From IMG/VR virus record IMGVR_UViG_3300042894_007218: DNA of 46,145 nucleotides. One strand, written 5' to 3'. The position numbers and the translations under genes were made by a program. The stretch is from an uncultured virus (IMG/VR IMGVR_UViG_3300042894_007218) (lineage: Duplodnaviria; Heunggongvirae; Uroviricota; Caudoviricetes). Each line of letters opens with the position of its first letter. The stretch's first letter is position 1. Shown here piece by piece: positions 821-27,429 of this stretch. The notes below the pieces were generated by a model. It did no database searches, was not told the origin of the DNA, and saw only the letters and a list, made by a program, of their open reading frames with translations.

Positions 821-922
821 ATGAGAGCAATTCGCACACATAAGCATTTTAGTAAATCGTCGAAGTGGTTTAGTCACTCCGGTTCGGTACTAAAAGAGTA
901 TTGCTCAAATTTAGAAGTGTAA
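821..922 (+). CDS. attenuator leader peptide 1 (MRAIRTHKHFSKSSKWFSHSGSVLKEYCSNLEV)
   Basis: 33-aa ORF; R/H/K/F/S/W run matches downstream tRNAs; GGTTCGG (881-887) complements the terminator arm. Confidence 0.85.
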   Translation: MRAIRTHKHFSKSSKWFSHSGSVLKEYCSNLEV

Positions 923-947
923 TAACTTATAAAAGACAATATAATTT

Positions 948-980
948 AACCCGAACCTCGAAAGAAGTTCGGGTTTTTTT
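948..980 (+). terminator. intrinsic terminator (attenuator 1)
   Basis: AACCCGAAC/GTTCGGGTT stem plus T7 run. Confidence 0.9.
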
Positions 981-995
981 ATTAATAAAAAAATT

Positions 996-1068
996 GGAAT
1001 GGTGGCAGATTAGGTAATTGCGCTGGACTGAAAATCCAGAGGAGTGGGCTCGATACCCACCCGTTCCA
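996..1068 (+). tRNA. tRNA-Phe(GAA)
   Basis: Cloverleaf; ctgga CT GAA AA tccag. Confidence 0.9.
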
Positions 1069-1078
1069 CAAAAAATAT

Positions 1079-1154
1079 GATCTCGTAGCTCAGCAGGTTT
1101 TAGAGCACCTCACTTTTAATGAGGGGGTCGTGGGTTCGAGCCCCACCGGGATCA
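1079..1154 (+). tRNA. tRNA-Lys(TTT)
   Basis: cctca CT TTT AA tgagg; TTCGA T-loop. Confidence 0.95.
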
Positions 1155-1156
1155 CT

Positions 1157-1229
1157 GTGAATGTAGCTCAATTGGTAGAGCGCTTGATTGTGATTCAAGA
1201 GGTAGCGGGATCGTAACCCGTCATTCACC
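1157..1229 (+). tRNA. tRNA-His(GTG)
   Basis: cttga TT GTG AT tcaag; C73. Confidence 0.9.
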
Positions 1230-1233
1230 AAAT

Positions 1234-1304
1234 ACGTCATACAGACAAGGTGTCGGTCAGGTCTCCAAAACCTCGACGGCTGGGTTCAATTCCTAGATGG
1301 CGTG
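1234..1304 (+). tRNA. tRNA-Trp(CCA)
   Basis: aggt CT CCA AA acct; acceptor acgtcat/atggcgt. Confidence 0.8.
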
Positions 1305-1309
1305 CTAAT

Positions 1310-1382
1310 AGTTTCATCGTCTAACCGAATAGGACACACGGCTACGAACCGTGAAGTGAGAGTTTGAGTCTTTCTGAAACTA
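1310..1382 (+). tRNA. tRNA-Arg(ACG)
   Basis: cacgg CT ACG AA ccgtg; atypical T-loop TTTGA. Confidence 0.8.
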
Positions 1383-1390
1383 CAAAATAA

Positions 1391-1477
1391 GGAGAGTTGG
1401 TAGAGTGGTTGATTACACCGGTCTTGAAAACCGGAAAACTTGAAAGGGTTTCCAGGGTTCGAATCCCTGACTCTCCT
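1391..1477 (+). tRNA. tRNA-Ser(TGA)
   Basis: ccggt CT TGA AA accgg; long variable arm. Confidence 0.95.
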
Positions 1478-1488
1478 CTAAATTTTAC

Positions 1489-1570
1489 GGAGAATAAACT
1501 AATCTGGTGATTAGAGCCGCCTGCTAAGCGAGTTGCACGTACATTTGTGTGGGGTTCAATTCCTCTCCGC
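1489..1570 (+). tRNA. tRNA-Ser(GCT), 3' acceptor strand shortened (possible pseudogene)
   Basis: cgc CT GCT AA gcg with long variable arm; only a few nt follow the T-arm before the convergent gene's stop. Confidence 0.6.
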
Positions 1571-7654: not shown

Positions 7655-8221
7655 TTATTGTTTATATCTGCGTTGTAAAATAATCAGTTGAACTTCAGCC
7701 TCAATATAGGTATCGAATCTATAATCTTCACCGGTATTCAAATCACATATTTCTATCCAATTCAATTGATTGTTTTCACCAATTGTTCCATCTATTATAG
7801 ATATTGTTTTTGATCCAGCATCTACTCTGGCTTGTAAGCATTGAGAACCAGTTGATTTATTGAGATGCCAATCTTGCCACTCTAAATCTTTCCAAAATTT
7901 AATATTTTTAGATTTTAATTCTTCTAAAAAATCAATTTTAATAAGTGATAAGTAAATACTATCATCTAAAGTAATCTGATTGTGTCTGATTTTTTCAACT
8001 TCTTTTGAAACATTAAGAATAGACCATCCAATATCTTCTAATGCGCTTCTAACAGCCTCTATATCATCTTTATCACATTCTGTTTTTCTGTTTAAATCAC
8101 AAATTAATATACCATATGAACTTTCATAAACAATCTCAGGTTCATTATCTGTTAAGATATACATGTATTCTAAAATATTAGAATGAGATTCAAAAATTTT
8201 ATATGATTTTAAATGTTTCAT
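7655..8221 (-). CDS. hypothetical protein with MKHLKSYKIFES motif
   Basis: ORF; shared N-terminal motif. Confidence 0.75.
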   Translation of the reverse strand: MKHLKSYKIFESHSNILEYMYILTDNEPEIVYESSYGILICDLNRKTECDKDDIEAVRSALEDIGWSILNVSKEVEKIRHNQITLDDSIYLSLIKIDFLEELKSKNIKFWKDLEWQDWHLNKSTGSQCLQARVDAGSKTISIIDGTIGENNQLNWIEICDLNTGEDYRFDTYIEAEVQLIILQRRYKQ

Positions 8222-8685
8222 AATCTTCTTAATTGTATTGCATTTCCACCCTGTCTTACTGAAAATCCTTCTGGTGGATTCATATCTAAATACCTTTTAT
8301 ATATTCTGGTTCTGGAGGTAACAAAGTGTTTTTCTGTATCTTTTGCTAATCCAACAAAGAATATTTCTTTAGTCCAATTACATCTTTTTGTAAAATCATT
8401 TAAGATATCTCCAAAAACTGTTTGAAGAACTCTATACGGATTTACATTTACAATTTTATAAGCAGTATAAGAACCTTCATCTTCTACATAATAAAGTAGT
8501 TCATAAACATTACTTAACTCGCCTGGCTTTCTTACAGGAATGTTTTTAAACTCAACTAAATATCGATTTCCAATGACATCTTCAAATTTATATTTGATTA
8601 AAAAAGGATTATCAGATTCTAATTCAAAATGATAAGATTGAACTTCTTCTAATAAAAATTGAAAAAAATGTGACAAGTATTTCAT
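8218..8685 (-). CDS. hypothetical protein
   Basis: ORF preceded by AATATATA; overlaps the next start. Confidence 0.75.
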   Translation of the reverse strand: MKYLSHFFQFLLEEVQSYHFELESDNPFLIKYKFEDVIGNRYLVEFKNIPVRKPGELSNVYELLYYVEDEGSYTAYKIVNVNPYRVLQTVFGDILNDFTKRCNWTKEIFFVGLAKDTEKHFVTSRTRIYKRYLDMNPPEGFSVRQGGNAIQLRRL

Positions 8686-8769
8686 TAAAAGTATATATTA
8701 ATTGAAAAAATTCTTTAATTTATAAGAAAAGAGAAAACTTTTTTATATATACACATACAATTAGAACAT

Positions 8770-8842
<73 letters not shown>

Positions 8843-8861
8843 CTAAAAAAATTAAAAAAGT

Positions 8862-8933
8862 ATGAATAAATTAGCAACATATTATTACGAAGCCGAGGGT
8901 TTAAACCCAGTCGGACGAGTTTGTGTGTTGTAA
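8862..8933 (+). CDS. attenuator leader peptide 2 (MNKLATYYYEAEGLNPVGRVCVL)
   Basis: YYYEAE run precedes tRNA-Glu and tRNA-Tyr; antiterminator 8910-8924. Confidence 0.85.
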   Translation: MNKLATYYYEAEGLNPVGRVCVL

Positions 8934-8952
8934 CGATTTGATTACTTTAAAC

Positions 8953-8984
8953 AAACCCAGTCCGATTTTGGTCTGGGTTTTTTT
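8953..8984 (+). terminator. intrinsic terminator (attenuator 2)
   Basis: AAACCCAG..CCGA/TTGG..CTGGGTTT plus T-run. Confidence 0.85.
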
Positions 8985-9007
8985 ATTTTAAAAATATTTT
9001 AAAAAGA

Positions 9008-9039
9008 TTTGGTGTATTTGAAAAGTTACCTTATCTTTG
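9008..9039 (+). promoter_or_regulatory. Bacteroidota-type promoter between attenuator 2 and tRNA-Glu
   Basis: TTTG-N20-TATCTTTG. Confidence 0.7.
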
Positions 9040-9094
9040 TAAAACAAAAGAGGTAAATATAAATCCAAGTAACCCCTTGGTTTTTTACTAACTT

Positions 9095-9166
9095 GGTCCC
9101 ATCGTCTAACGGTTAGGACGTTAGGTTTTCATCCTAGAAATCGGAGTTCGATTCTCCGTGGGACTA
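9095..9166 (+). tRNA. tRNA-Glu(TTC)
   Basis: ttagg TT TTC AT cctag. Confidence 0.95.
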
Positions 9167-9177
9167 CAAAATTTATT

Positions 9178-9258
9178 GGAAGGTGGCAGAGTGGTTAAAT
9201 GCGGCAGACTGTAAATCTGCTCTCTTACGAGTACGGGGGTTCGAATCCCTCCCTTCCA
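9178..9258 (+). tRNA. tRNA-Tyr(GTA)
   Basis: gcaga CT GTA AA tctgc; long variable arm. Confidence 0.95.
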
Positions 9259-9314
9259 ACAAAATTTAAAAGAGGAAATAAACTTTTTATATATAATAAC
9301 ATAAAATAGAAACA

Positions 9315-9398
9315 ATGAAAAATTTAACTAACATAGGGGCAGTAATTATAGCGATAGGCGCGGGGCGTTTTATCGATAGACTGAGTTATGTTATGTAA
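9315..9398 (+). CDS. attenuator leader peptide 3 (MKNLTNIGAVIIAIGAGRFIDRLSYVM)
   Basis: ATA x3, GGG x2, GGC, GCA, GCG x2 precede Ile(TAT)/Ala/Gly tRNAs; antiterminator 9378-9387. Confidence 0.85.
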   Translation: MKNLTNIGAVIIAIGAGRFIDRLSYVM

Positions 9399-9419
9399 AT
9401 TTTGACTTTACATATATTT

Positions 9420-9451
9420 AAAACCCAGTCTCGAAAAGACTGGGTTTTTTT
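9420..9451 (+). terminator. intrinsic terminator (attenuator 3)
   Basis: AAAACCCAGTCT/AGACTGGGTTTT plus T-run. Confidence 0.9.
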
Positions 9452-9455
9452 ATTT

Positions 9456-9536
9456 CGGCAAGTACCGTTGGTGTCTTATACACACTATACACGTAGCGGG
9501 AAGTTGAAAACGTGGGTTCGAATCCCACCTTGCCGA
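9456..9536 (+). tRNA. atypical tRNA-Ile(TAT)-like RNA lacking a canonical D-arm
   Basis: Acceptor cggcaag/cttgccg; T-arm gtggg TTCGAAT cccac; gtgt CT TAT AC acac. Confidence 0.6.
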
Positions 9537-9542
9537 CAAATT

Positions 9543-9616
9543 GGGCCATTGGTGAAGAAGGCTATCATACCTGGTTTGCACCCAGGAGTCACGAGTTCGA
9601 GGCTCGTATGTGTCCA
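9543..9616 (+). tRNA. tRNA-Ala(TGC)
   Basis: cctgg TT TGC AC ccagg; G3:U70 present; 1-nt bulge in acceptor. Confidence 0.85.
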
Positions 9617-9622
9617 CAATTT

Positions 9623-9710
9623 GCAGGTATCGCCTAGTTGGTCGATGGCTCCGGATTTCCAATCCGGTCAGATAAGGTTCACAACGTGGGTTCGAATCCC
9701 ACTACCTGCT
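9623..9710 (+). tRNA. tRNA-Gly(TCC) with enlarged variable region
   Basis: ccgga TT TCC AA tccgg; U73. Confidence 0.85.
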
Positions 9711-9767
9711 CAAACCTTGCCAAGATTGGGGTCGTGAGTATTCTCCACAAAAATTAATATATACTAT

Positions 9768-9950
9768 ATGACAATTTTTAAAAACAAATTAGACGGAAAG
9801 CTCTACACTATTTATAAGAATAGTGATGGAACACTTACTGCATTTCCTTCTGGTAAGGTTGTAGATGAGATGAGTATATTAAAAAATTGTAAGCTCGAAG
9901 ATTTTTTTGTTTACAAAATTGAACAAAATAAAATTAAAGGTTTTATATAA
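9768..9950 (+). CDS. hypothetical protein
   Basis: ORF after AATATATA motif. Confidence 0.6.
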   Translation: MTIFKNKLDGKLYTIYKNSDGTLTAFPSGKVVDEMSILKNCKLEDFFVYKIEQNKIKGFI

Positions 9951-9966
9951 AAAATTAAAAGAAATT

Positions 9967-10098
9967 ATGAAGATAGTAATAGAAGGTGAAATTAAGGGTA
10001 GTAAAGAAAATTTTAGGAATTTGACCACTGATACAAAAATTAAATTTGTATCTAAGCTAATGAAAAATGTAAAAAAAAGAATTAAGTCCAGAAATTAA
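9967..10098 (+). CDS. small hypothetical protein (ATG start MKIVIEGE)
   Basis: ORF followed by terminator hairpin at about 10084-10110. Confidence 0.45.
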   Translation: MKIVIEGEIKGSKENFRNLTTDTKIKFVSKLMKNVKKRIKSRN

Positions 10099-10136
10099 CT
10101 GGACTTTTTTATAAATAGAAAGAAACAAAAAAATTT

Positions 10137-10871
10137 ATGAAAAACTTATTATTATTTATATTTACCTTTATCTCAATCCTATCTTATTCACAAACAATTC
10201 TTTCTTGGAATATTCAGAATTTAGGAGAAACAAAGTATAAAAGAGATTCAGTTATTACACAAATTACAAATGTTATAAAATCTTCTAAAGCAGACATAGT
10301 AGCAATACAAGAAGTAATCACTGGACCTTATGGTGATTCTTGTATTATCAAAATATCTAAACTACTTAATTATAATTATACTATATCTGCTAGAACTACA
10401 GGAGATGGGGCTGAAAGATATGCTTTTCTTTATAAAAAAGATATAACCCTAAACTGGTCAAAGTTAGATGCTAACTTACAAGACTCACTAAATAGAGAAC
10501 CATTTATGGCTTCTTTTAAATACAATAAAAAAGATGTTGTTGTAAGACAAGTTCATTTAGTTCCTACAAGTAAAAATCCTCAACAAGAAGTAGAAGATAT
10601 GTACTGCTATAAAGATGGTATTATTTGTGGTGATTTTAATTTAACTTGTAAACATCTAATCTATATTCCGTTATTGAAAAGTTTCAATTCACCTCTTTGT
10701 GGACAGGGAACTTCTCTAAAAAGAGATGGGACAGTTAGTGAAAACAACTATGACCATTTTTTAGTAGATAAAACTTATAAGATTGTTGAAAGTAAAGTGT
10801 TCATTTATCCGTACAAAGGAAATAGAAATACATTATCTGACCATTTGCCTATACTTATTAAATTAAATTAA
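10137..10871 (+). CDS. endonuclease/exonuclease/phosphatase (DNase I-like) family protein with signal peptide
   Basis: SWNIQN, DIVAIQEV, ERYAFLY, GDFN, YDH, SDHLP motifs. Confidence 0.9.
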   Translation: MKNLLLFIFTFISILSYSQTILSWNIQNLGETKYKRDSVITQITNVIKSSKADIVAIQEVITGPYGDSCIIKISKLLNYNYTISARTTGDGAERYAFLYKKDITLNWSKLDANLQDSLNREPFMASFKYNKKDVVVRQVHLVPTSKNPQQEVEDMYCYKDGIICGDFNLTCKHLIYIPLLKSFNSPLCGQGTSLKRDGTVSENNYDHFLVDKTYKIVESKVFIYPYKGNRNTLSDHLPILIKLN

Positions 10872-10882
10872 TATATACTCCT

Positions 10883-11446
10883 ATGAAGTATCTAAAGAGA
10901 TTTAACGAAAATATATCAGTTTATGATCCTAAATGGGAAGAATTGCTTCCTGATACTATTACTGTTTTGAAAGGTCAAGACCACGGTATAGATAAGTGGG
11001 TATATAGTAAGGGGAATATTATGTTAAACTCCGATATGTTACAAATAACATATGATATAGATGCTGATATGGCACCTGATACATTAGAAATAGATATCTA
11101 TATGGTAAGAGATACTGCTTTTGATAAAAGCGGTGATTCTACGACTGTTGTAAAATCTGGCACTTTTGAATATGATGATAACATAGGAGAAAAATTGCCA
11201 AATTTAAGACTTACTGTAGACATCACTTTTGGTGATGAGATGGCATGTGAATTTACAATTGATAAAGTTAATGGTGTAAGACTATTTCAAGATACCACTT
11301 ATGGTTCTAAATTTGATCCTTCGAATACCATTTTTGCGCTAAGTGATGAAAGTCTGAAAAAATTTGTTGATTTTTTAAATAGATTCAATCACGGTGTCAA
11401 TCTAAAATTAGATGATTTCAATTTTTTAAAACAAAATAAAAATTAA
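10883..11446 (+). CDS. hypothetical protein, paralog of 26148-26909
   Basis: MKYLKRFNE motif; blocks shared with 26148-26909. Confidence 0.8.
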   Translation: MKYLKRFNENISVYDPKWEELLPDTITVLKGQDHGIDKWVYSKGNIMLNSDMLQITYDIDADMAPDTLEIDIYMVRDTAFDKSGDSTTVVKSGTFEYDDNIGEKLPNLRLTVDITFGDEMACEFTIDKVNGVRLFQDTTYGSKFDPSNTIFALSDESLKKFVDFLNRFNHGVNLKLDDFNFLKQNKN

Positions 11447-11457
11447 TCCTATAAAGC

Positions 11458-11580
11458 ATGAATAGATTTATTGAGATAGTATCTGAATATCCATTTACTT
11501 GTTTGTGGCTATCAGTAATTATTATTTCTATTATTTCTATGATAAGTGAATCAATTAAGAAACGTAAAAATAGAGATTAA
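11458..11580 (+). CDS. small single-pass membrane protein (40 aa)
   Basis: Fills the gap; hydrophobic core plus basic tail; stop overlaps the next ATG. Confidence 0.55.
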   Translation: MNRFIEIVSEYPFTCLWLSVIIISIISMISESIKKRKNRD

Positions 11581-12236
11581 TGGAATTATTTCATTTCGAT
11601 ATTGAAACCGCTGGAAAATGGCGAGATTTTGATGAATTTGTGGAAAACGATAAAAGAGGATCTGACCTATTTAAATCTAAATGGGAAAGAATGAGATGGT
11701 CTGAAAAGTATAAAGACCTAAATGAAGCTTATTTAGATAATTCTGGTATCATATCAGCTTATGGAAGGATTGTTTGTATCTCTTTTGGGTATATTGACAA
11801 TGATGGTCAAAAAAGAATTTCTTCATTCTATGGTGATGATGAAAAAGATATTGTTGAATCATTTAACAATTTACTATCTAAGATAGAAAAAAAAGCTTTC
11901 AATCTTTCTGGTTTTAGAATAAATCATTTTGATATTCCTTGGGTTTTACACAAGTGTCACAAATATGGCATTAAACCCGCCAATATTATTTATGTATATG
12001 ATAAAAAACCCTGGGATATGAGAATTACAGATATGTCTGATGATTGGAGGCAAAAGTTTGCTTGGGCGTTCTCATTTGATGAAATGTGTTATGAATTAGG
12101 TGTAGATTCTCCAAAGCAAGAAATGAATGGTTCTGAAGTTCATAAGTGTTTTTGGAATGGTGAATTAGATAAAATAAAGAGATATTGTGAAAGTGACGTA
12201 TCTGCTTCTATTGATGTTTCTTTAAAGTTATATTAA
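11580..12236 (+). CDS. DEDD 3'-5' exonuclease (PolB-proofreading-like)
   Basis: FDIET, N.FDIP, YCESDV motifs. Confidence 0.85.
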   Translation: MELFHFDIETAGKWRDFDEFVENDKRGSDLFKSKWERMRWSEKYKDLNEAYLDNSGIISAYGRIVCISFGYIDNDGQKRISSFYGDDEKDIVESFNNLLSKIEKKAFNLSGFRINHFDIPWVLHKCHKYGIKPANIIYVYDKKPWDMRITDMSDDWRQKFAWAFSFDEMCYELGVDSPKQEMNGSEVHKCFWNGELDKIKRYCESDVSASIDVSLKLY

Positions 12237-12282
12237 ACATCCGGTGTCTATACAAATATATACTTGTAAATTATAATATATT

Positions 12283-12453: not shown

Positions 12454-12461
12454 TTTAAACA

Positions 12462-12488: not shown

Positions 12489-12490
12489 AT

Positions 12491-14093: not shown

Positions 14094-14125
14094 TTTGGTA
14101 GAACTGAAACTTTTATCTAATTTTG
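14094..14125 (+). promoter_or_regulatory. Bacteroidota-type promoter for leader 4
   Basis: TTTG-N20-TAATTTTG. Confidence 0.75.
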
Positions 14126-14183
14126 TATAAAATAATGACAAAAAATTAAAAAGAAAGATTTAACTTTCAATATATACAAAACA

Positions 14184-14300
14184 ATGAAAACGAATTTGAC
14201 AAATATGACGATGAACCTAACACTCAATGTGGTGAATATTACGTTATGTAATATTAGAACTTCTGAGGGTTCCTTCCTATTTAGTAAATTTGTCTTATAA
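14184..14300 (+). CDS. attenuator leader peptide 4 (MKTNLTNMTMNLTLNVVNITLCNIRTSEGSFLFSKFVL)
   Basis: Codons 3-26 are only T/N/L/M/V/I/C/R, matching the downstream tRNAs; antiterminator 14262-14272. Confidence 0.88.
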   Translation: MKTNLTNMTMNLTLNVVNITLCNIRTSEGSFLFSKFVL

Positions 14301-14328
14301 AGTGTAAATTTATAACTAAATATAAAAG

Positions 14329-14365
14329 AACCCTCGGATAGAAAAATCTGAGGGTTTTTTGTTTT
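14329..14365 (+). terminator. intrinsic terminator (attenuator 4)
   Basis: AACCCTCGGAT/ATCTGAGGGTT plus T-run. Confidence 0.9.
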
Positions 14366-14370
14366 ATACT

Positions 14371-14442
14371 GGAGTAGTAGCTTAATGGTGAAGCAATCGG
14401 CTGTTAACCGATAGATTACAGGTTCGAGTCCTGTCTACTCCG
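14371..14442 (+). tRNA. tRNA-Asn(GTT)
   Basis: atcgg CT GTT AA ccgat. Confidence 0.95.
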
Positions 14443-14448
14443 CTAAAT

Positions 14449-14521
14449 AGTCTCCTCGTTCAACTGGACAGGACATCGCTCTTCTAAAGCGAGGATATGG
14501 GTTCGAATCCCGTGGAGACTA
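14449..14521 (+). tRNA. tRNA-Arg(TCT)
   Basis: tcgct CT TCT AA agcga. Confidence 0.9.
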
Positions 14522-14527
14522 CTAATT

Positions 14528-14598
14528 ACTCTGATGGCGTAAAGGTAGCGTATCTCTTTTACATGGAGAAGGCAGTGGTTCGATACCACTTCGGAGTA
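14528..14598 (+). tRNA. tRNA-Val(TAC)
   Basis: tctct TT TAC AT ggaga. Confidence 0.9.
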
Positions 14599-14606
14599 CA
14601 AAAAAT

Positions 14607-14681
14607 TGGAATATAGCTCAGTTGGTTTAGAGCGCCGATCTGATACGTCGGAGGTCACTGGTTCGAGCCCAGTTATTCCAA
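14607..14681 (+). tRNA. tRNA-Ile(GAT)
   Basis: ccgat CT GAT AC gtcgg. Confidence 0.95.
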
Positions 14682-14688
14682 CAAACAG

Positions 14689-14771
14689 GCACCTGTGGTC
14701 GAGTGGAGTAGAAATACGGAAGGCACTGGATTGCAAACCCAGTCACGGGGGTTCAAGTCCCTCCAGGTGCT
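14689..14771 (+). tRNA. tRNA-Cys(GCA) with enlarged D-loop
   Basis: ctgga TT GCA AA cccag; U73. Confidence 0.85.
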
Positions 14772-14778
14772 CAAATAT

Positions 14779-14850
14779 GCTGATGTCGTATAATGGTCAT
14801 TACATTGCCTTTGTAACGCAAATATGTGGGTTCGACTCCCTCCATCAGCT
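14779..14850 (+). tRNA. tRNA-Thr(TGT)
   Basis: ttgcc TT TGT AA cgcaa. Confidence 0.85.
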
Positions 14851-14856
14851 CTAAAA

Positions 14857-14928
14857 TGTCTCGTAGTTTAATGGGAAAACGTTACCTTGACATGGTAAAG
14901 AGAGTGGGATCGTTACCCACCGAGACAA
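14857..14928 (+). tRNA. tRNA-Val(GAC)
   Basis: ttacc TT GAC AT ggtaa. Confidence 0.85.
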
Positions 14929-14953
14929 CAAAATAATGGATGGTGATTGAAAG

Positions 14954-15024
14954 AGTTACTTCGTTTAATGGAAAAACAATTGACTTCTAATCAATCTACA
15001 CTGGTTCGATTCCAGTAGTATATT
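14954..15024 (+). tRNA. tRNA-Arg(TCT)-like element with broken acceptor stem
   Basis: attga CT TCT AA tcaat; good D and T arms; only about 4 acceptor pairs. Confidence 0.55.
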
Positions 15025-15056
15025 ACTCTTCAAAGCTTTCCTCCGTTATTTTATTT

Positions 15057-15139
15057 GCCTTGGTGGTGAAATTGGTAGCACACGCCAGATTTAGGATCTG
15101 GTGCCGAAAGGCGTGAGAGTTCGAGTCTCTCTCAAGGTA
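15057..15139 (+). tRNA. tRNA-Leu(TAG)
   Basis: ccaga TT TAG GA tctgg; long variable arm. Confidence 0.95.
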
Positions 15140-15145
15140 CAAAAT

Positions 15146-15231
15146 GCTCCTGTGGCGAAATTGGCAGCACGCGTTGGACTTAAAATCCAATGGTCATAGT
15201 GACCGTGCCGGTTCGAGTCCGGCCAGGAGTA
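15146..15231 (+). tRNA. tRNA-Leu(TAA)
   Basis: ttgga CT TAA AA tccaa; long variable arm. Confidence 0.95.
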
Positions 15232-15265
15232 CAAAATTAATATATAATCAAAAAAGAAAAGTATT

Positions 15266-15592: not shown

Positions 15593-15598
15593 ACAAAA

Positions 15599-15668: not shown

Positions 15669-16238
15669 CTATCTTAGTATTGTAACGTGACCGGTTATTA
15701 GTTTTTTTCCATCATCGTCAATCATATCTAATTTCATTATCCAAGAATATGTTCCATCCGGAACTAAAACGCCATTGTATGTACCATCCCATTTTGAATT
15801 AACATCATGTGATTGCCATATAATTGCACCCCATCTATTGTATATTGTTAATTCAAAATTATCAGTAGATATACCACTTGTTAATACCGGTCCCCACATT
15901 TGATTGAATTCATTTCCATCTGGTGTAAATGAATTAGGAACCCAAAATATTAACGGATCACATTGAGTTACAATAACGTCTAAGACTTGTGGATTTCCAG
16001 GACATCCTATATCATTATAACCAATTGCAACTATTTGATATTCTCCTGGTTCATCATAAGTAATACTAATATCTAATCCATTACCAATTTGAGAACCATT
16101 TAGAAACCATGTTACAGTACCATTTACATCAATGGTTGTTGTATATGTAAAAGTGTTTGGTTCTTCACATATCTCAAACTCCTGTTGAGCATGGTATCTA
16201 AATGTTAATAGTAAAAATAATATTAATATAACTCTCAT
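15669..16238 (-). CDS. secreted protein with T9SS type B (gliding-motility-associated) C-terminal domain
   Basis: Signal peptide; VPNSFTPDGN..., IYNRWG, WDGTYNG, DGTY motifs. Confidence 0.9.
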   Translation of the reverse strand: MRVILILFLLLTFRYHAQQEFEICEEPNTFTYTTTIDVNGTVTWFLNGSQIGNGLDISITYDEPGEYQIVAIGYNDIGCPGNPQVLDVIVTQCDPLIFWVPNSFTPDGNEFNQMWGPVLTSGISTDNFELTIYNRWGAIIWQSHDVNSKWDGTYNGVLVPDGTYSWIMKLDMIDDDGKKLITGHVTILR

Positions 16239-16239
16239 C

Positions 16240-16806
16240 TTAATTATGTTGTATTGGTGTTAATGTTGGTTGTGGAGAAACTCCTGTATTTGAAGTTGCT
16301 GTAAAAGTACATCCTCCATTTGTATAAGTGTATGTAATAGTTGATGCCCCTGGTCCTGCTGTTTGTGGACAGAATTGGCCATTAACTACTCCATTTCCTG
16401 ACCAAACACCACCAGCTGGTAATCCAGATAACGCAACACACGGATCTGTTACACAGAAAGGTCCAATCGGTGTGATTGATGGAGCGACTTGATAAATAAG
16501 AACATTTAAGTTTACTGCTGGTGATGGACAACCAGCCTGTGAAGTGTAAATAACACTAACTGCATTATTAATTAATCCCGGAGGACAGTTTGACCAGTTG
16601 ACTTGAATTGAGTTTGTGCCCTGTCCTGATGTAATTGTTGCACAAGCAGGAACTGTCCAAGTATAAGTTCCAGCGCCAATTGAAGTTACTTGATACTGAG
16701 AAAGAGATTGTGACTGATAACAAACAGTGTCTGGATTTGTAGTCACAAGCTGACCAAATACAGCCGTGTTTAAGAGAATAAAGAATAATAAAAACAGTTT
16801 TTTCAT
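16240..16806 (-). CDS. secreted PKD/Ig-like domain protein
   Basis: Signal peptide; YTWTV...GQGTNSIQVNW; ends PIQHN. Confidence 0.8.
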   Translation of the reverse strand: MKKLFLLFFILLNTAVFGQLVTTNPDTVCYQSQSLSQYQVTSIGAGTYTWTVPACATITSGQGTNSIQVNWSNCPPGLINNAVSVIYTSQAGCPSPAVNLNVLIYQVAPSITPIGPFCVTDPCVALSGLPAGGVWSGNGVVNGQFCPQTAGPGASTITYTYTNGGCTFTATSNTGVSPQPTLTPIQHN

Positions 16807-16825
16807 TTTTAATTTTTAATTTTTA

Positions 16826-17878
16826 TTAGTTGTGGCTAATTGGGCCTAAAACTATTTGAGGTGGTTGTGTTATAGTGACACTTCCAGTAGCTGTACATCC
16901 GTTTAGATTAACAGTTACTGTATATGTTCCTGGACAAAGATTACTTATTGATTGAGTTGTTGCACCATTTGACCATAGATATGTCGCTCCTGGGTAATTG
17001 GCATTTGCTGTTCCATTACAAAGACCAAAACAAGTTACATTTGTAAATGTTGGATTAACTACAATATTAACAGGTGTCCAAGTTATTGTAGCATAACCAT
17101 TGCCTGAATTATTTGAAGCAAGACAAGTTCCACCCGGTGGCACCAACGATGATCCTCCGCCGCCTCCGCCGCCTCCATTAGACCCGGTGCAACAACCGTC
17201 GTTTCCACCACCGCCTCCGCCATAGTATCCACCACCACCGCCTCCACCAGAAGCGGTTTGCCAAAATCCACCATTACCACCTTGGTTTAATGTTCCTGTT
17301 TGTCCACCAGGGGGAGTTCCTGCCCAGGGGGCGCCTCCTAATCCACCAGCTACTTGAGTACCTCCACCTCCACCTGCACCGAACGTTGATGTACCTGGTG
17401 CGCCGTTTGTGCAGTTAGCTGGTCCGCCTGCAACTGAATTTGATCCTCCACTTTTTCCACCACCTCCGCCACCAACAATTACTCTGTTTGCAAGTGCAGT
17501 TCCACCAATTCTAATATCAGTTGCGCCACCACCACCACAAGAGTTGTAAGCCACATTTGCTGGATTAGAGGCATAACCTGTGCCACCGCCATTCCATCCA
17601 CCTGAATTATTTCCACAGGAACCTTGGCCACCTACATAGATATTTAAAGTTTGACCTGGTGTGACATTAAGTGTTGCTGAAATTCTAGCACCGTTTCCGC
17701 CATTTGCGCCGCCACCTTTAGCCCCAGCGACAACAACATTTATAGAAGTAACACACGGTGGTACTACCCAAGTTTGTAACGATCCGGTATAGTTAAAGTT
17801 AACAGTTTGAGTTTGTGAATATAAATAGTTGAATATAGAACTCAGAAACAATAAAGTTAGTAATCTAAGTTTAATCAT
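16826..17878 (-). CDS. secreted glycine-rich domain protein with SprB-like repeat
   Basis: FNYTGSLQTWVVP, GGGGATDIR, poly-G tracts; YLWSNGATTQSISNLCPGTYTVTV; ends PISHN. Confidence 0.85.
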   Translation of the reverse strand: MIKLRLLTLLFLSSIFNYLYSQTQTVNFNYTGSLQTWVVPPCVTSINVVVAGAKGGGANGGNGARISATLNVTPGQTLNIYVGGQGSCGNNSGGWNGGGTGYASNPANVAYNSCGGGGATDIRIGGTALANRVIVGGGGGGKSGGSNSVAGGPANCTNGAPGTSTFGAGGGGGTQVAGGLGGAPWAGTPPGGQTGTLNQGGNGGFWQTASGGGGGGGYYGGGGGGNDGCCTGSNGGGGGGGGSSLVPPGGTCLASNNSGNGYATITWTPVNIVVNPTFTNVTCFGLCNGTANANYPGATYLWSNGATTQSISNLCPGTYTVTVNLNGCTATGSVTITQPPQIVLGPISHN

Positions 17879-20331
17879 TTAATTTCAAATTTTCTTATTG
17901 TAGTGGTCAATTTTTCGTTTACTACATATATATAATACATTCCAGATGATTTTTGTAAATTATCTACAAAAAATGCATTTATTCCTGGTTTTATTTCTAA
18001 ATCTTTATTTAATACTTCAGAGCCTTTTGTGTCTTTAATAATTAACTTTGAAGTTCCTACTAAATTTATATCATTTATTATGACTTGAAATTCACCTGAA
18101 GTCGGATTTGGAAATACTGAGAAATAACCTTCTGAACTAACACTACAATTTACATTGATTGGTCCATATTCTTTTGACTTACCATCTATATCAATTTGTA
18201 AAAGTTTATAGTAATTATTACCAGAAATTATATTTTCGTCTAAAACTGTATAAGATAGTTCTTGTGTTGAGTTACCTGCTGAACTAATACTTGTAAGTGT
18301 AGACCAATTCACACCATCTCTAGATTTCATAACTTTAAAGTAATCTGAATTATGTTCTGTTGCTGTTTTCCAATCTAATGTTACTGAACCATCTTTGCAA
18401 TTACCTTCAAAACTTAATAATTCTACTGGTAATGCTCCGTTTGTAATAATATTAAAAAATCTAACTTGAGTTCCGCAATTAGTAGAATTTGAGACCGTAA
18501 CTCTAACCGATCCATCTGTTGTTGTTTGAGGCCAATAAAACGATATTGATGGTGTATTTGAGTTTGGTATGTTTGTCCAAAATGGTGCTGTTATTGATTG
18601 TGTGTAAGCCCACTGATAAGTTGAATTTGCAACTGGTGTTATTGAATATGTCTCCTGTGTTCCTGCAATTATTGTGTTGTTTCCTGATACCGTTGAAACA
18701 AATCCGACTGATGGATTTACTGATATAGTTGTAGAAGTTGAATTTGAACATCCATTTGAACTAACAGATAATTGATATAATTGTGTTGATGTTGGTGATG
18801 CAAATGGACTTGGAGCCGATGGATTTGTTAATCCTGTTGATGGTGTCCAATTATATGTTATTGGTGATCCAGCAGGAAGACCTGTCACAGAACTAACTAA
18901 TTGAGTATTGGTTCCTGAACAAATAGTATTACTTACTGAAGAAACAGAAACATTTGGTGTTGGATTTACCGTGATGAACGTAGAAGCACATCCTGAACTA
19001 AATTGACTTCCGTTGAAGTTTCTTGCAAAATATGTTGTTGTGGTTGTTGGTGAAACACTGATAGAATTTCCAAATCCAATTTGAGTTATTCCACATCCAT
19101 TTACATACCAATAAACTGTACCAGATACACCATTAGCAGTTAATGTTGTTGATTGACCATTACACAAAATATTTTGAGTTGTAGAAATTGATGTGGGATT
19201 TGGTGGAGGTGGTGTAGCACAAGTTAAACCAATTGAAAATGGACTTGTACTACTATATCCATGAACTAATATGTAATAGTTTACACCTGGTGCGCCATAC
19301 CAACTATAAGACGCTGATGATGTAGAACAAACAGGACCCCAATCATCATTTCCACCAATACAAGTTAGTGATGAGCAATTAGGACCACTAAATACTGATA
19401 TTTTACTATCCCATGCTGTCGCACATAAGTTAGCAGTCATGTTTTGTCCGTTCCCTGCTACCACATACCAAACACCACCAGTTGTTTGACTAACACCACA
19501 AAAACCACCCATTTCACCTGTTCCTGTGTTTGTGGAGTTTACGGTCGTTCCAGCAATTGTTTGTCCACATACTATTGGTGTTGCATTACAGACTAAATCA
19601 TTTGATGGTGCTGCGGGAGCTGAACAGGAAAGACATTCAATTGTTGAAGTTCCACAGGATGATGCGGTTCCACAAGATGAGTTTGTGTTATAATGAATAT
19701 AATATGTTCCTGAAATCGGTGCCGTCCAAGTTAATGGTGAAAAACCTGCAGCAACTACCGTTCCATTATAAGATGTGTGTCTAACGGTGATATAACCTCC
19801 TAAATTATATGTCGATCTATATTGCCTACCTGAAACTACACTAAAAATAGTATTATATTCTGATTGGAATGTGCAAGAACTTATGGTTTGTAAACCTGGA
19901 ACTGATGGTGCTGTTAATGACCCATAAGCATATAGGTTTACACAACCTCCACCACCACCACCTGAACAACTACCAATACAAGTATGTCCTCCAAATGTTG
20001 AACCTCCAGTAGTTGGTTGTGTGGTATTTAAGAGAATTGTTCCTGTATTATTTCTAATTTGAACTCTCATTTCAGATGGATATATTCCTGCAGTTGTTCT
20101 CCATACTCTAATCGTTTGTCCCGATGATGCGGTAAAGTTAAATATTGCTGGTCCTAATCCTGAATTAAGTGTTATGTTGGTCAATACCGTTAGTCCATTG
20201 ACTGAAACTGATACAGCACCACCATTCCATCCATCACCCCAAGTGTCTGTAAGATATATTTGATGAGTGCAAGACTGTGAAAAAAAATATGATGACAAAA
20301 ACGTAAACAAAAAAATTAATAAGTTCTTCAT
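17875..20331 (-). CDS. large secreted multi-domain protein with T9SS type A C-terminal sorting domain
   Basis: Signal peptide; DTWGDGWNG, Ig-like repeats, LPVELLSF, VFPNPTSG...GMYYI tail. Confidence 0.9.
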   Translation of the reverse strand: MKNLLIFLFTFLSSYFFSQSCTHQIYLTDTWGDGWNGGAVSVSVNGLTVLTNITLNSGLGPAIFNFTASSGQTIRVWRTTAGIYPSEMRVQIRNNTGTILLNTTQPTTGGSTFGGHTCIGSCSGGGGGGCVNLYAYGSLTAPSVPGLQTISSCTFQSEYNTIFSVVSGRQYRSTYNLGGYITVRHTSYNGTVVAAGFSPLTWTAPISGTYYIHYNTNSSCGTASSCGTSTIECLSCSAPAAPSNDLVCNATPIVCGQTIAGTTVNSTNTGTGEMGGFCGVSQTTGGVWYVVAGNGQNMTANLCATAWDSKISVFSGPNCSSLTCIGGNDDWGPVCSTSSASYSWYGAPGVNYYILVHGYSSTSPFSIGLTCATPPPPNPTSISTTQNILCNGQSTTLTANGVSGTVYWYVNGCGITQIGFGNSISVSPTTTTTYFARNFNGSQFSSGCASTFITVNPTPNVSVSSVSNTICSGTNTQLVSSVTGLPAGSPITYNWTPSTGLTNPSAPSPFASPTSTQLYQLSVSSNGCSNSTSTTISVNPSVGFVSTVSGNNTIIAGTQETYSITPVANSTYQWAYTQSITAPFWTNIPNSNTPSISFYWPQTTTDGSVRVTVSNSTNCGTQVRFFNIITNGALPVELLSFEGNCKDGSVTLDWKTATEHNSDYFKVMKSRDGVNWSTLTSISSAGNSTQELSYTVLDENIISGNNYYKLLQIDIDGKSKEYGPINVNCSVSSEGYFSVFPNPTSGEFQVIINDINLVGTSKLIIKDTKGSEVLNKDLEIKPGINAFFVDNLQKSSGMYYIYVVNEKLTTTIRKFEIK

Positions 20332-24859: not shown

Positions 24860-25345
24860 ATGACAATTGCTGATTTAAAATTGAAAATTGATGAAAAACA
24901 AAAATCATCAAATATATTACGTAAACAGTTAGGTAAGATTCATCAAGAGTTAGACGAATTAAGAAATCAATTTAATCAACTTGAAATGGAAGAGTTTGTA
25001 AATTATTTACAAATTGGTGAAGTTATTGAATTTGATAGTTACTTTTCATTAAAAGGTTTTTGCAAAGATCCTAAAGCTACTAATTCATTTCAATCTGGTG
25101 AAAAGATTAAAATTATAAAAAAGAATAAAAAATCAATTGTTATTGAGGTGGTTAAAAAGTTTCAACGAAGATGGGATGATGTACAAAAGAAATCGGTTGT
25201 TATTGGTGAAACAAATCCAGGTTGGAATATAAGAGTTGATTTAGATTCATTTTTTCACTTTTATCTAAGAAGTAAAACAATGAAAAACACATTTGATTCT
25301 TATATCAAAAGAAAACATGCATTAGATAGTTTATTTGATGAATAA
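24860..25345 (+). CDS. hypothetical protein with N-terminal coiled coil
   Basis: ORF. Confidence 0.75.
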   Translation: MTIADLKLKIDEKQKSSNILRKQLGKIHQELDELRNQFNQLEMEEFVNYLQIGEVIEFDSYFSLKGFCKDPKATNSFQSGEKIKIIKKNKKSIVIEVVKKFQRRWDDVQKKSVVIGETNPGWNIRVDLDSFFHFYLRSKTMKNTFDSYIKRKHALDSLFDE

Positions 25346-25769
25346 AGAAGTTGAAATATTAAAGATAGGTAGTATTCTACCGGTGATGCCTATAAAAGGA
25401 ACCAGAGTGTATGATACCTCTCAGTTTAAAAACAAACAAACTATTATGGTTGTTTATGATGGTGGTGAACTTTTTGATTACTATATTGGTATTTTAAGAA
25501 AGAATTGTGATGAATATGTCTATCAAAAAACTGCTAAGTCTATTATAGGAAAACCTCATACTTTTAAATTTAATGATGATACGCTAAAAGGTATCACGGA
25601 TGGTGATCCAATAGTTGGTCAATCTTATACTATTGGTAATTCAAGTTGGTATACTTCTACAGTGAAAAAAATAATAGATGATTGTATTCTTATTACAAAA
25701 AATTCTGTTTATGCTATTCATAATCTGTCTGATGTAAGAGATAGAAAATTAAATGATTTGGGGTTTTAA
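25335..25769 (+). CDS. hypothetical protein (C-terminal RDRKLNDL motif)
   Basis: ORF. Confidence 0.75.
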   Translation: MMNKEVEILKIGSILPVMPIKGTRVYDTSQFKNKQTIMVVYDGGELFDYYIGILRKNCDEYVYQKTAKSIIGKPHTFKFNDDTLKGITDGDPIVGQSYTIGNSSWYTSTVKKIIDDCILITKNSVYAIHNLSDVRDRKLNDLGF

Positions 25770-25779
25770 TATATACCTT

Positions 25780-26145
25780 ATGAAGCATATTAAACCAATT
25801 AATGAATTTACAAGAACGATAGGGTTTAGATATTCTGAGCCGGCTATTGGATACAGAGCAATTCTATTTTGTGTTGGTAAATTAAGTAAAAACTCATTTT
25901 TGCAATTATTGAATTTTTCAGAAATTAAAAATGAAAAAGTAAAAATATCTAAGGAAGAAAATAAAGTCAATACTGAAGAAGGTGAAATTGAAACAGATTT
26001 AGTTATTGAATTTGACTTTTTTGTTTATAGTGAACAGGAGTTAGAAAGAATAGTTGAAGATGTTAGAAATGGTCTACAAAGAGAATTTAATGTTCAGACT
26101 TTTGATTTCTTACTTAAAGAACTTCCTAAGTTAAAAAAGAAATAA
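25780..26145 (+). CDS. hypothetical protein; start corrected to MKHIKPINEF
   Basis: ATG at 25780 follows AATATATA and gives the shared N-terminal motif. Confidence 0.75.
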   Translation: MKHIKPINEFTRTIGFRYSEPAIGYRAILFCVGKLSKNSFLQLLNFSEIKNEKVKISKEENKVNTEEGEIETDLVIEFDFFVYSEQELERIVEDVRNGLQREFNVQTFDFLLKELPKLKKK

Positions 26146-26150
26146 TATTG

Positions 26151-26909
26151 ATGAGATTTCTGAAAGGTTTCAATGAGGCGGTTGGAATAGTCAACTTAGG
26201 TTCTAATATCTCTCAAGAGAGAATTCCTAATCTACAACACGTTGGTGAGCCAATTGAAGATGGTGATAATATTTCAATATTTCAACAAGACTGGTTTGAA
26301 AAGTTATTACCTGATACTATAAAAGTACACTCACATCCAAATCTAAAAAAACTCAATTTTGATCAAAGTTTGACTAATATTGATACTGAGAATAAGACTT
26401 ATGTTCTTAAAAAGAATGATTGTACTATTGATGGTGATTTAGTACAATTTAATTACCACCAAAATACTTATGATAAACCAGAAGATATAGTTGATGATGG
26501 TGAGCCAGATATGTTAGAGTTTGATATACATTTTGTTAAAAATGATAGAGGAATAAAACTATTAGTAGATATTACTTATGGTGATAACATGGCTTATGAG
26601 TTTTCAATTGAGACACCTAATAAAATTAACATAATACACTATACCGGAAAAGGTTCGATGTATGATAGTGAAACACATTGGGGTTTCTGCGAGGATACTA
26701 TTAAAGATTTAGTCAAATTCTTTAATGCTTTTAATCATGGAATTAACATTACTGAAGAAGACTTTAATTTTTTAGATTCTGATAAAGAAAGCTACCAGCA
26801 TAATACACACGACCAAAAGCACCTTTATAATGATGAATCAGATTTAGTAAGATTTGGAAATTCATCAAAGGTAAAAAGTTTTGAAAGTTTTATTAAAAAA
26901 ACTTTGTAA
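26151..26909 (+). CDS. hypothetical protein, paralog of 10883-11446
   Basis: MRFLKGFNE start; blocks shared with 10883-11446. Confidence 0.8.
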   Translation: MRFLKGFNEAVGIVNLGSNISQERIPNLQHVGEPIEDGDNISIFQQDWFEKLLPDTIKVHSHPNLKKLNFDQSLTNIDTENKTYVLKKNDCTIDGDLVQFNYHQNTYDKPEDIVDDGEPDMLEFDIHFVKNDRGIKLLVDITYGDNMAYEFSIETPNKINIIHYTGKGSMYDSETHWGFCEDTIKDLVKFFNAFNHGINITEEDFNFLDSDKESYQHNTHDQKHLYNDESDLVRFGNSSKVKSFESFIKKTL

Positions 26910-26933
26910 AATAAAAACTTTTTTCTATTTTTG
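26903..26933 (+). promoter_or_regulatory. Bacteroidota-type promoter for leader 5
   Basis: TTTG-N19-TATTTTTG. Confidence 0.65.
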
Positions 26934-26981
26934 TATAGAAAATTGACAAATAGAGAAAAATAATTCAATATATAATTAACA

Positions 26982-27074
26982 ATGAAAAACGTAATTGTAA
27001 ATATCGTAGTAAATCAACAACCGCAGGATCAGGATCCAGTCGGAGTGACTAACTATGTTTTTACATTGAGTTAA
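26982..27074 (+). CDS. attenuator leader peptide 5 (MKNVIVNIVVNQQPQDQDPVGVTNYVFTLS)
   Basis: QQPQDQDP run precedes Asp/Pro/Gln tRNAs; antiterminator 27046-27054. Confidence 0.88.
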   Translation: MKNVIVNIVVNQQPQDQDPVGVTNYVFTLS

Positions 27075-27094
27075 GATATTAACAAATAAATTGT

Positions 27095-27129
27095 AAACCC
27101 GGTTAGTCAAAAACTAATCGGGTTTTTTT
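27095..27129 (+). terminator. intrinsic terminator (attenuator 5)
   Basis: AAACCCGGTTAGT/ACTAATCGGGTTT plus T7. Confidence 0.9.
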
Positions 27130-27136
27130 GTTTTTA

Positions 27137-27208
27137 GGTCTATTAGGGTAGTGGTTATCCTTCCTCACTGTCTATGAGGAGACGCGAGTTCGATTCTCGC
27201 ATAGACCG
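27137..27208 (+). tRNA. tRNA-Asp(GTC)
   Basis: cctca CT GTC TA tgagg; G73. Confidence 0.92.
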
Positions 27209-27272
27209 CACAAAGTAACTGTTTGGCGGTGAAAGTACTCTTTAGAGAATAGAGTAAAATAATTCTCAAAAA

Positions 27273-27346
27273 CTAGGTGTAGCTCAGTTTGGTAGAGCGG
27301 GGAGTTTGGGACTCTCAGGCCGCAGGTTCGAACCCTGTCACTTAGA
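27273..27346 (+). tRNA. tRNA-Pro(TGG)
   Basis: gggag TT TGG GA ctctc. Confidence 0.92.
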
Positions 27347-27354
27347 CTTAAAAT

Positions 27355-27429
27355 TGTCCTGTAGTGAAATTGGCATCACGTATCATTTTGGCTGATAAGT
27401 TTGAGGTTCGAACCCTCACAGGACAACCA
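27355..27429 (+). tRNA. tRNA-Gln(TTG)
   Basis: tatca TT TTG GC tgata; U1-A72; encoded CCA. Confidence 0.92.

Follow-up and report, generated by a model that had tools for sequence, protein, structure and literature searches.

The window analysed here, the whole 46,145-nucleotide (nt) stretch of IMG/VR record IMGVR_UViG_3300042894_007218 from an uncultured virus of the Caudoviricetes, carries five blocks of transfer RNA (tRNA) genes. Each block is preceded, in the same orientation, by an ATG open reading frame (ORF) of 23-38 codons and then by a G+C-rich hairpin with a T run (Table 1). Besides this anatomy, the five units possess a match between the codons of the leader ORF and the tRNAs that follow, are conserved in related phages, and bear signatures of translation and of alternative RNA pairing. 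A first-pass annotation, made from the letters alone, had read them as leader-peptide attenuators.

Leader ORFs, terminators and tRNA blocks

ARAGORN at default settings detected 23 tRNAs in the window, 21 of which fall inside the five co-oriented blocks, and the Rfam models returned 25 tRNAs and one GOLLD RNA. All five short ORFs named in the first-pass annotation were found in place, with the quoted residue blocks in their peptides. The intrinsic terminators it had described between leaders and tRNA genes were recovered in every unit as well, 20-26 nt after the leader ORF and with folding free energies (dG) of -14.5 to -19.5; those of units 1, 3 and 4 also appeared in a separate listing. The distance from hairpin to tRNA-type gene is 8 to 20 nt in four units and about 115 nt in unit 2. 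The fivefold repetition of short ORF, terminator and tRNA block therefore stands, with the qualification that unit 2 has a promoter-like site between its terminator and tRNA-Glu.

Table 1. Elements of the five leader-terminator-tRNA units and adjoining features, in window positions.
Feature	Position	Strand	Detail or basis
Promoter-like site, unit 1	732..763	+	TTTG, 20 nt, TAATTTTG; read from sequence
Gene-start motif, unit 1	804..814	+	TTCAATATATA, 6 nt before leader 1 ATG
Leader ORF 1	821..922	+	33 codons, MRAIRTHKHFSKSSKWFSHSGSVLKEYCSNLEV; block R T H K H F S K S S K W F S H S (codons 5-20)
Region 2, unit 1	881..903	+	GGTTCGG (881-887) and GTATTG (898-903) pair with 951-956 and 937-942 to form antiterminator
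Terminator, unit 1	948..982	+	hairpin 948-975, then T run; dG -15.0
tRNA block 1	996..1569	+	Phe GAA, Lys TTT, His GTG, Trp CCA (weak call), Arg ACG, Ser TGA, Ser GCT-like (possibly defective); ARAGORN, Rfam, homology to relatives
tRNA-Met(CAT)	8770..8843	+	5' of leader 2, behind no leader; ARAGORN, Rfam
Leader ORF 2	8862..8933	+	23 codons, MNKLATYYYEAEGLNPVGRVCVL; block Y Y Y E A E
Region 2, unit 2	8910..8916	+	GTCGGAC pairs with 8960-8966
Terminator, unit 2	8953..8986	+	hairpin 8953-8980; dG -14.5
Second promoter-like site and small hairpin	9008..9080	+	TTTG 9008-9011, TATCTTTG 9032-9039, hairpin with T run 9065-9080; between terminator 2 and tRNA-Glu
tRNA block 2	9095..9260	+	Glu TTC, Tyr GTA; ARAGORN, Rfam
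Leader ORF 3	9315..9398	+	27 codons, MKNLTNIGAVIIAIGAGRFIDRLSYVM; block I G A V I I A I G A G
Region 2, unit 3	9377..9385	+	TAGACTGAG pairs with 9424-9432
Terminator, unit 3	9420..9452	+	hairpin 9420-9448; dG -16.4
tRNA block 3	9456..9711	+	Ile TAT (non-canonical), Ala TGC, Gly TCC; ARAGORN, Rfam, homology to relatives
Promoter-like site and gene-start motif, unit 4	14094..14176	+	14094-14125 and 14166-14176
Leader ORF 4	14184..14300	+	38 codons, MKTNLTNMTMNLTLNVVNITLCNIRTSEGSFLFSKFVL; block T N L T N M T M N L T L N V V N I T L C N I R
Region 2, unit 4	14263..14275	+	pairs with 14325-14337; dG -19.7
Terminator, unit 4	14325..14360	+	hairpin; dG -19.5
tRNA block 4	14371..15232	+	Asn, Arg TCT, Val TAC, Ile GAT, Cys GCA-like, Thr TGT, Val GAC, Arg TCT, Leu TAG, Leu TAA; without Met; ARAGORN, Rfam, homology to relatives
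Promoter-like site and gene-start motif, unit 5	26903..26974	+	26903-26933 and 26964-26974
Leader ORF 5	26982..27074	+	30 codons, MKNVIVNIVVNQQPQDQDPVGVTNYVFTLS; block Q Q P Q D Q D P
Region 2, unit 5	27045..27054	+	GTGACTAACT pairs with terminator 5' arm and loop
Terminator, unit 5	27095..27132	+	hairpin 27095-27125; dG -16.4
tRNA block 5	27137..27429	+	Asp GTC, Pro TGG, Gln TTG; ARAGORN, Rfam

The tRNA lists of the first-pass annotation were mostly right, with four of the listed genes being non-canonical calls. Trp(CCA) of block 1 (1234-1305) was called only under relaxed ARAGORN settings; the second Ser of that block (GCT, 1488-1569) scored 33 bits, below threshold; Ile(TAT) of block 3 (9456-9537) scored 35.6 bits with Rfam and is homologous to an ARAGORN-called Ile(tat) of relatives; and Cys(GCA) of block 4 (14689-14772) rests on alignment to Cys(gca) in relatives. 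The Ser(GCT)-like gene (1488-1575, + strand) is near-identical to the called Ser(gct) of the closest relative and has a 5-nt deletion in its T-arm/acceptor region; it may be a decaying tRNA gene, and two AGT codons are still present in leader 1. The tRNA-Met listed for block 4 was found neither by ARAGORN, at default or relaxed settings, nor by Rfam; a second Val(gac) and a second Arg(tct) are there instead. Because both tRNA-Met genes of the window (8770 and 37254) lie outside the leader-terminator units, 19 amino acids are represented behind leaders and not all 20, as had been claimed.

Units 1, 4 and 5 have in common a 5' leader region and a promoter-like cassette (TTTG, about 20 nt, TAnnTTTG), which also occurs in relatives and which we take to correspond to the -33/-7 consensus of Bacteroidota. 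Units 2 and 3 are without such a cassette upstream and lie directly 3' of tRNA genes. Exact copies of the gene-start motif TTCAATATATA occur in the window only at 804, 14166 and 26964. Its core, the octamer AATATATA, has 27 copies on both strands (e.g., 13609, 35000 and 36373 on the forward strand, 23092 and 33744 on the reverse) and is located 4-25 nt 5' of the start in 16 of 45 long ORFs, with a chance expectation of 0.34. The octamer stands 6-7 nt before the ATG of leaders 1, 4 and 5, and the exact motif is absent from leaders 2 and 3. It could represent either a phage-specific promoter with very short 5' leaders or a translation-start signal without Shine-Dalgarno pairing. A second promoter-like class (AGATTTGG.., then CTTATCTTTGTAAAACAAA) forms four repeats, at 36910-37250 (+) and 9008-9039 (+). 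At 36910-37250 these are directly 5' of tRNA or small-RNA genes that have no leader, and one copy sits between the putative attenuator 2 and tRNA-Glu.

Codon matching, conservation and signatures of translation

The claim that leaders and tRNA blocks are matched, for which a permutation test had been suggested, held up when every leader was scored against every block (a 5x5 comparison) at the level of amino acids, of strict wobble and of loose wobble, once including and once excluding the weak tRNA calls at each level. The true leader-to-block pairing was the single best of 120 permutations in all six scoring modes. An enrichment score, defined as the best-segment log-odds for amino acids of the following block, was also compared with that of random peptides of phage composition; out of 200000 in each case, the score of the leader was reached by 0 (leader 1), 244 (leader 2), 4 (leader 3), 2 (leader 4) and 0 (leader 5). 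Furthermore, none of these scores was reached by any other of the 161 short ATG ORFs (20-45 amino acids, six frames) of the window.

The match extends to isoacceptors. In the codon blocks, Arg is encoded by CGC in leader 1, ahead of Arg-ACG, and by AGA in leader 4, ahead of Arg-TCT; Ile is encoded by three ATA codons in leader 3, which precedes Ile-TAT, and by two ATT codons in leader 4, which precedes Ile-GAT. The 64 block codons are rarer than in 20000 of 20000 synonymous resamplings, with a G+C content at third positions of 0.45 (versus 0.18 in long ORFs) and with 21 of 64 ending in G (versus 9%). Given these rare G-ending codons, many tRNAs would thus be probed through both of their codons.

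The five units are not confined to this window. A megablast match, LR745206.1, is an unannotated 634,780-base-pair uncultured phage with 61 tRNA hits in the same groupings and a homologous leader before each. All five units are present in LR745206.1 and in four IMG/VR genomes (G001-G004; contigs of 152-436 kilobases, kb), in the latter in the same order; only unit 1 was seen in a further, fragmentary contig (G005, CheckV 30% complete). A scan of IMG/VR with the promoter pattern yielded 45 loci, and all 12 that have tRNAs downstream also have a leader and a terminator; the other 33, with protein genes or no tRNA, were set aside. Where the tRNAs are grouped otherwise, the leaders differ too. In G002, two tRNA-Gln genes are split off behind an extra leader, MRTTTQYQQQQQINPTD, with its own terminator. 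In a different phage (L033), a leader rich in D, L and E, MQQFLNIGIDAQLDLLEDIGKCQRN, precedes Glu, Asp, Met and Leu tRNAs.

Insertions and deletions reveal which part of the leader is held in frame. In alignments with relatives, each of the 8 gap runs located from the ATG up to the last block codon has a length divisible by 3, compared with only 9 of the 44 located 3' of the block. In type 1 units the DNA of the stretch GTTCGGTACTnAAAGnGTATTG after the block is conserved and is read in two frames, giving GSVLKEY in the window and in locus L043 and FGTE.VL in five others; it is therefore the RNA and not the peptide that is conserved there. Although the window is AT-rich (26-40% G+C in 2-kb bins), codon enrichment and frame-preserving gap runs rule out that the short ORFs are chance products of such DNA. 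Taken together, the frame-preserving indels, the frame switch after the block, the common gene-start motif and the rare-codon bias point to a sensor that would be translated, coupled to an RNA switch.

Alternative pairing, proposed mechanism and competing explanations

The first-pass annotation had placed, just after each codon block, a segment complementary to the 5' arm of the terminator (here region 2, Table 1). With the 5' arm alone, this holds clearly for leader 1 (4 of 1000 shuffles as good) and leader 4 (0 of 1000), and does not reach significance for leaders 2, 3 and 5 (136, 145 and 235 of 1000). When the loop was included with the arm, the shuffles as good numbered 6, 5, 46, 1 and 18 of 300 for leaders 1 to 5. 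In all 33 units examined in the window and in relatives, the stretch immediately 3' of the block is the best upstream partner of arm plus loop; this pairing, found at the homologous position throughout, outscores 95% of shuffles in 23 of the 33. The leader stop codon falls inside the loop of the would-be antiterminator.

Covariation of antiterminator pairs was seen in type 4, type 3 and type 2 units. In type 4 the alignment comprises 17 pairs with 91.6% of cells paired and 5 compensatory pairs, a score reached by 0 of 500 shuffles. The type 3 alignment (9 pairs, 84.6% paired) has one compensatory change, A-U to U-A, and 26 of 500 shuffles reach its score. For type 2 (7 pairs, 100% paired, 2 compensatory) the figure is 51 of 500, with the alignment anchored 9 nt before a TC[AG]GAC motif, which leans towards the structure being counted. 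In type 5, changes appear by eye to be one-sided (A-U to G-U), in an alignment with two rows shifted in the terminator part. An upstream hairpin and the terminator are both part of the minimum-energy fold of every unit; no consensus for an upstream hairpin between region 2 and its 5' partner (the 1:2 hairpin) was found in the type 4 alignment.

We consider it likely that transcription in each unit is attenuated by way of a translating ribosome, with tRNA genes and not an amino-acid pathway as the output, and the phage would then probably make a given tRNA set only when ribosomes read its codons slowly. Transcription would start at a host-type promoter (units 1, 4 and 5) or read in from upstream tRNA genes (units 2 and 3), and a ribosome would begin to translate the leader. 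With block codons decoded fast, the ribosome would reach the stop codon, the terminator hairpin would form and RNA polymerase would stop before the tRNA genes. Were the tRNA for block codons scarce, the ribosome would stall on the block, which would also hold the strand that otherwise sequesters region 2; the freed region 2 would pair with the 5' arm of the terminator, and polymerase would read into the tRNA genes that decode those codons. The outcome would be a negative feedback loop for each tRNA set, with the terminator as the default state when there is no translation at all. We infer the kinetic part of this mechanism, together with translation of the leader ORFs and switching of the RNA by stalling; the physiological signal would be host tRNA decay or cleavage, host shut-off, or amino-acid supply.

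A number of observations weigh against this interpretation. Stalled and unstalled states are not told apart by a thermodynamic model in which the ribosome footprint is masked and minimum-energy folds are computed without and with the 3' arm. The terminator is the minimum-energy fold almost everywhere; the model is uninformative because both "terminator" and "arm paired upstream" were returned almost everywhere. In the window alone the antiterminator is weak for leader 3 and borderline for leader 5. The type 1 antiterminator (12 pairs, 100% paired in 7 sequences) is invariant throughout, including the non-coding ACAATAT, and so offers no covariation, and the type 1 1:2 helix, 91.6% paired across the same number of sequences, contains no compensatory change. 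A promoter-like site 3' of terminator 2 is present in the window, G001, G003 and G004 (the small hairpin with a T run that follows it, in the window and G003); Glu and Tyr tRNAs may therefore be made regardless, and attenuator 2 is possibly bypassed. Leaders and blocks also differ in detail. The first nine codons of leader 5 are N/V/I codons, which pertain to block 4; leader 4 contains two Met codons past its start and its block no tRNA-Met, a gene present in block 4 of relatives; the type 1 leader of G001, the closest relative, has four Thr codons before a block without tRNA-Thr; and that of LR745206 is without Arg before a block with Arg-ACG. The GC-rich rare codons of the blocks could serve RNA folding rather than sensing. 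Finally, stalling reports charged tRNA, and amino-acid starvation would therefore also induce the units, which would be of no help to the phage.

The unselected arrays likewise count against a general device. Phage tRNA arrays were sampled by a pattern of two T-arms 55-85 nt apart, giving at least 80 loci and at least 199 arrays, the window included. Outside the window, at least 20 sampled arrays have a terminator within 130 nt upstream and at least 13 of these have distinct short ORFs; most arrays are without an upstream terminator. Among the matches listed, only 2 of 13 candidate leaders (L087 and L105) match their own array, and a pooled permutation test on these 13 was not significant (2319 of 20000). 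The L087 leader, MKTLFSSYLLSLSLLSQGT, is rich in S and L, precedes three Ser and two Leu tRNAs, and uses every codon class that those five read. Given the 2 of 13 matches and the pooled result, attenuation of this kind would be a lineage feature and not a general rule; by its sequence hallmarks the putative device is present in several lineages and far from universal. The first-pass annotation had suggested scanning related phages for covariation between leaders and tRNAs; the Gln-only leader of G002 is an instance of it. In another phage group, three IMG/VR contigs (L056, L057 and L090) carry a conserved ORF of 32-33 codons (MSYQMPTKQFSPLDCRYWHIEGSPLFADMERHV and a variant) with a terminator before tRNA arrays. 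This ORF contains 19 of the 20 amino acids once or twice each and is a possible "all-codon" leader.

The dominance of the terminator in nearly all modelled states, the promoter-like site that unit 2 has after its terminator, and the fine-scale mismatches between leader and block content would suit hairpins that are fixed, leaky terminators or insulators before the tRNA blocks, with the ORFs translated or not, no switching, and a codon match due to shared ancestry or composition. We nevertheless regard this as unlikely, since it leaves unexplained that each leader matches only its own block, that a Gln-only leader stands where Gln tRNAs have split off, that the complementary strand covaries with the terminator arm, and that the reading frame is kept only in the block.

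Translation of the leader could alternatively be coupled to transcription for some other purpose, such as protection or processing of tRNA precursors or a tie to overall ribosome activity. By gene arrangement leaders 2 and 3 lie inside tRNA-mRNA-tRNA transcripts, leader N-termini are similar between units (MKN.., MKT..), and block 4 codons occur in leader 5, all of which agree with such coupling. It would, however, have no need for block-specific or isoacceptor-specific codons, nor for a pairing that is mutually exclusive with the terminator, and we think it rather improbable.

The codon block is by construction complementary to the anticodons of the downstream tRNAs, which could in principle pair with it directly and stabilise the antiterminator in the manner of a T-box, independently of ribosomes. 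Several findings make this very improbable: the block shares its reading frame with an ATG preceded by the phage gene-start motif, its indels keep that frame, and it is a run of 6-24 different codons, for which no tRNA-docking architecture is known. A T-box or riboswitch identity was moreover rejected by the Rfam search, in which no such family reached its gathering score in the window and no T-box appeared at E values up to 10 in 900-1650. That the ORFs encode functional micropeptides unrelated to regulation, as their conservation and gene-start motifs might suggest, is hardly credible given C-terminal parts in different frames over conserved DNA, stop positions and tails that vary by non-triplet indels, and a composition that follows the downstream tRNAs.

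With attenuation by a translating ribosome thus preferred, the notion of an on-demand decoding sensor advanced by the first-pass annotation agrees with codon matching, conservation, frame-preserving indels, antiterminator covariation and the Gln-only leader, but its switch is not reproduced by simple thermodynamic folding. More tentatively, the five units might together form a modular tRNA homeostat, in which each unit is an independent feedback loop. It would monitor, codon by codon and for the most part by means of rare wobble codons that end in G, how well its share of the code is decoded in the infected cell, and then transcribe exactly the replacement tRNAs for that share. In this way the phage would sense when host tRNAs are lost, be it to anticodon nucleases or to decay after host shut-off, and would make good the loss while sparing itself the cost of constant tRNA synthesis; this larger picture is possible but may well prove wrong. 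To link the units to host anticodon nucleases or other tRNA-cleaving defences is a guess.

Other features of the window and relation to known systems

A full-length GOLLD RNA (37804-38206, +; 285.7 bits, model positions 1-416 of 416) sits amid the leaderless tRNA genes. GOLLD RNAs are known from phages, often beside tRNAs. At 39273-39377 (+) lies a tRNA whose CTA anticodon would decode the stop codon TAG and which has a 30-nt insert after position 37; it was reported as tRNA-Pyl(cta) by ARAGORN with introns allowed and scored 56.7 bits with the Rfam tRNA model. The standard code leaves the long ORFs of the window open, and any reassignment of TAG would therefore be partial or stage-specific. 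Two tRNA-like genes (38406-38513 and 36963-37049, both +) were seen only with relaxed ARAGORN settings, one being Glu(ttc)-like with a 41-nt insert and the other having a long extra arm and an ambiguous anticodon loop. On the reverse strand, a run of genes at 15669-20331 has CHU_C (type IX secretion signal), PKD-like, Ig-like and ALK/LTK glycine-rich domains, which are features of Bacteroidota-type surface proteins. The 20 listed sequencing runs that match window positions 8000-16000 are all DNA and are mostly labelled lake water metagenome.

Phage tRNA arrays are seen as compensation for host tRNA loss, whether through PrrC, PARIS and retron-associated nucleases or through decay after host shut-off, and tRNA genes in general are treated as constitutively or growth-rate controlled. 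The present arrays resemble others in being large phage-borne tRNA sets that duplicate host decoding capacity. To our knowledge, work on phage tRNAs treats them as expressed cargo, and we know of no described tRNA gene that is controlled by the decoding of its own codons. In agreement with the first-pass annotation, which knew of none, a full-text literature search with subscription papers outside its reach found no published case of leader-peptide attenuation of tRNA genes, in phages or cells, and no built-in sensor that sets phage tRNA transcription. For the genomes above 634 kb of Al-Shayeb et al. 2020, to which LR745206.1 may belong, Bacteroidetes were predicted as hosts, and the main text (PMC7162821) makes no mention of leaders, attenuation or terminators. 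The attenuator survey of Naville and Gautheret 2010 likewise does not mention tRNA genes or tRNA operons.

If the proposed mechanism is correct, phages carry a direct sensor of decoding capacity, which would explain the block organisation of tRNA arrays in huge phages and provide a testable link between phage tRNAs and host defences that target tRNA, as well as compact, codon-specific genetic switches for Bacteroidota. With 19 amino acids distributed over five putative sensors that are kept across genomes of 150 to 635 kb, the idea is directly testable with reporters.

The closest precedents are the leader-peptide attenuators of enterobacteria, including the multivalent thr (Thr and Ile), ilvGMEDA and ilvBN (Ile, Leu and Val) leaders and those of trp, his, leu and pheA. 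As in these, regulatory codons for several amino acids are concentrated in a short ORF, an intrinsic terminator follows it, an alternative hairpin uses the same 5' arm, and the position of the ribosome would decide between them. In contrast, the units described here are viral and of Bacteroidota type, divide 19 amino acids among five parallel units, and have the stop codon inside the antiterminator loop. They share neither sequence nor Rfam membership with the enterobacterial leaders: in 900-1650 the Rfam amino-acid operon leaders remained below cut-off (Trp_leader 18.5 bits versus 41, Thr_leader 17.5 versus 55), both matches covering only the terminator end. Since the regulated genes are tRNAs and not enzymes, the loop would correct tRNA supply and not amino-acid supply.

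Leader peptides are also used to control the translation apparatus itself, as in the attenuator of the pheST synthetase genes with its pheM leader. A His leader before hisS paralogues in bacilli is a second such case (PMC2965389). Sensing through the decoding of cognate codons would be common to these systems and to the phage units; however, the former control protein genes for charging, whereas here the decoding RNA itself would be controlled, in blocks of 2 to 10 genes. T-box riboswitches similarly govern genes of the translation apparatus by a choice between terminator and antiterminator that is set by the state of a specific tRNA, but they bind uncharged tRNA without a ribosome and through a conserved fold, whereas the codons here lie in a frame predicted to be translated. 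The hardware is thus that of classical attenuation; the novelty lies in its proposed use on tRNA genes, in its being carried by a virus and in the division of the code among five units.

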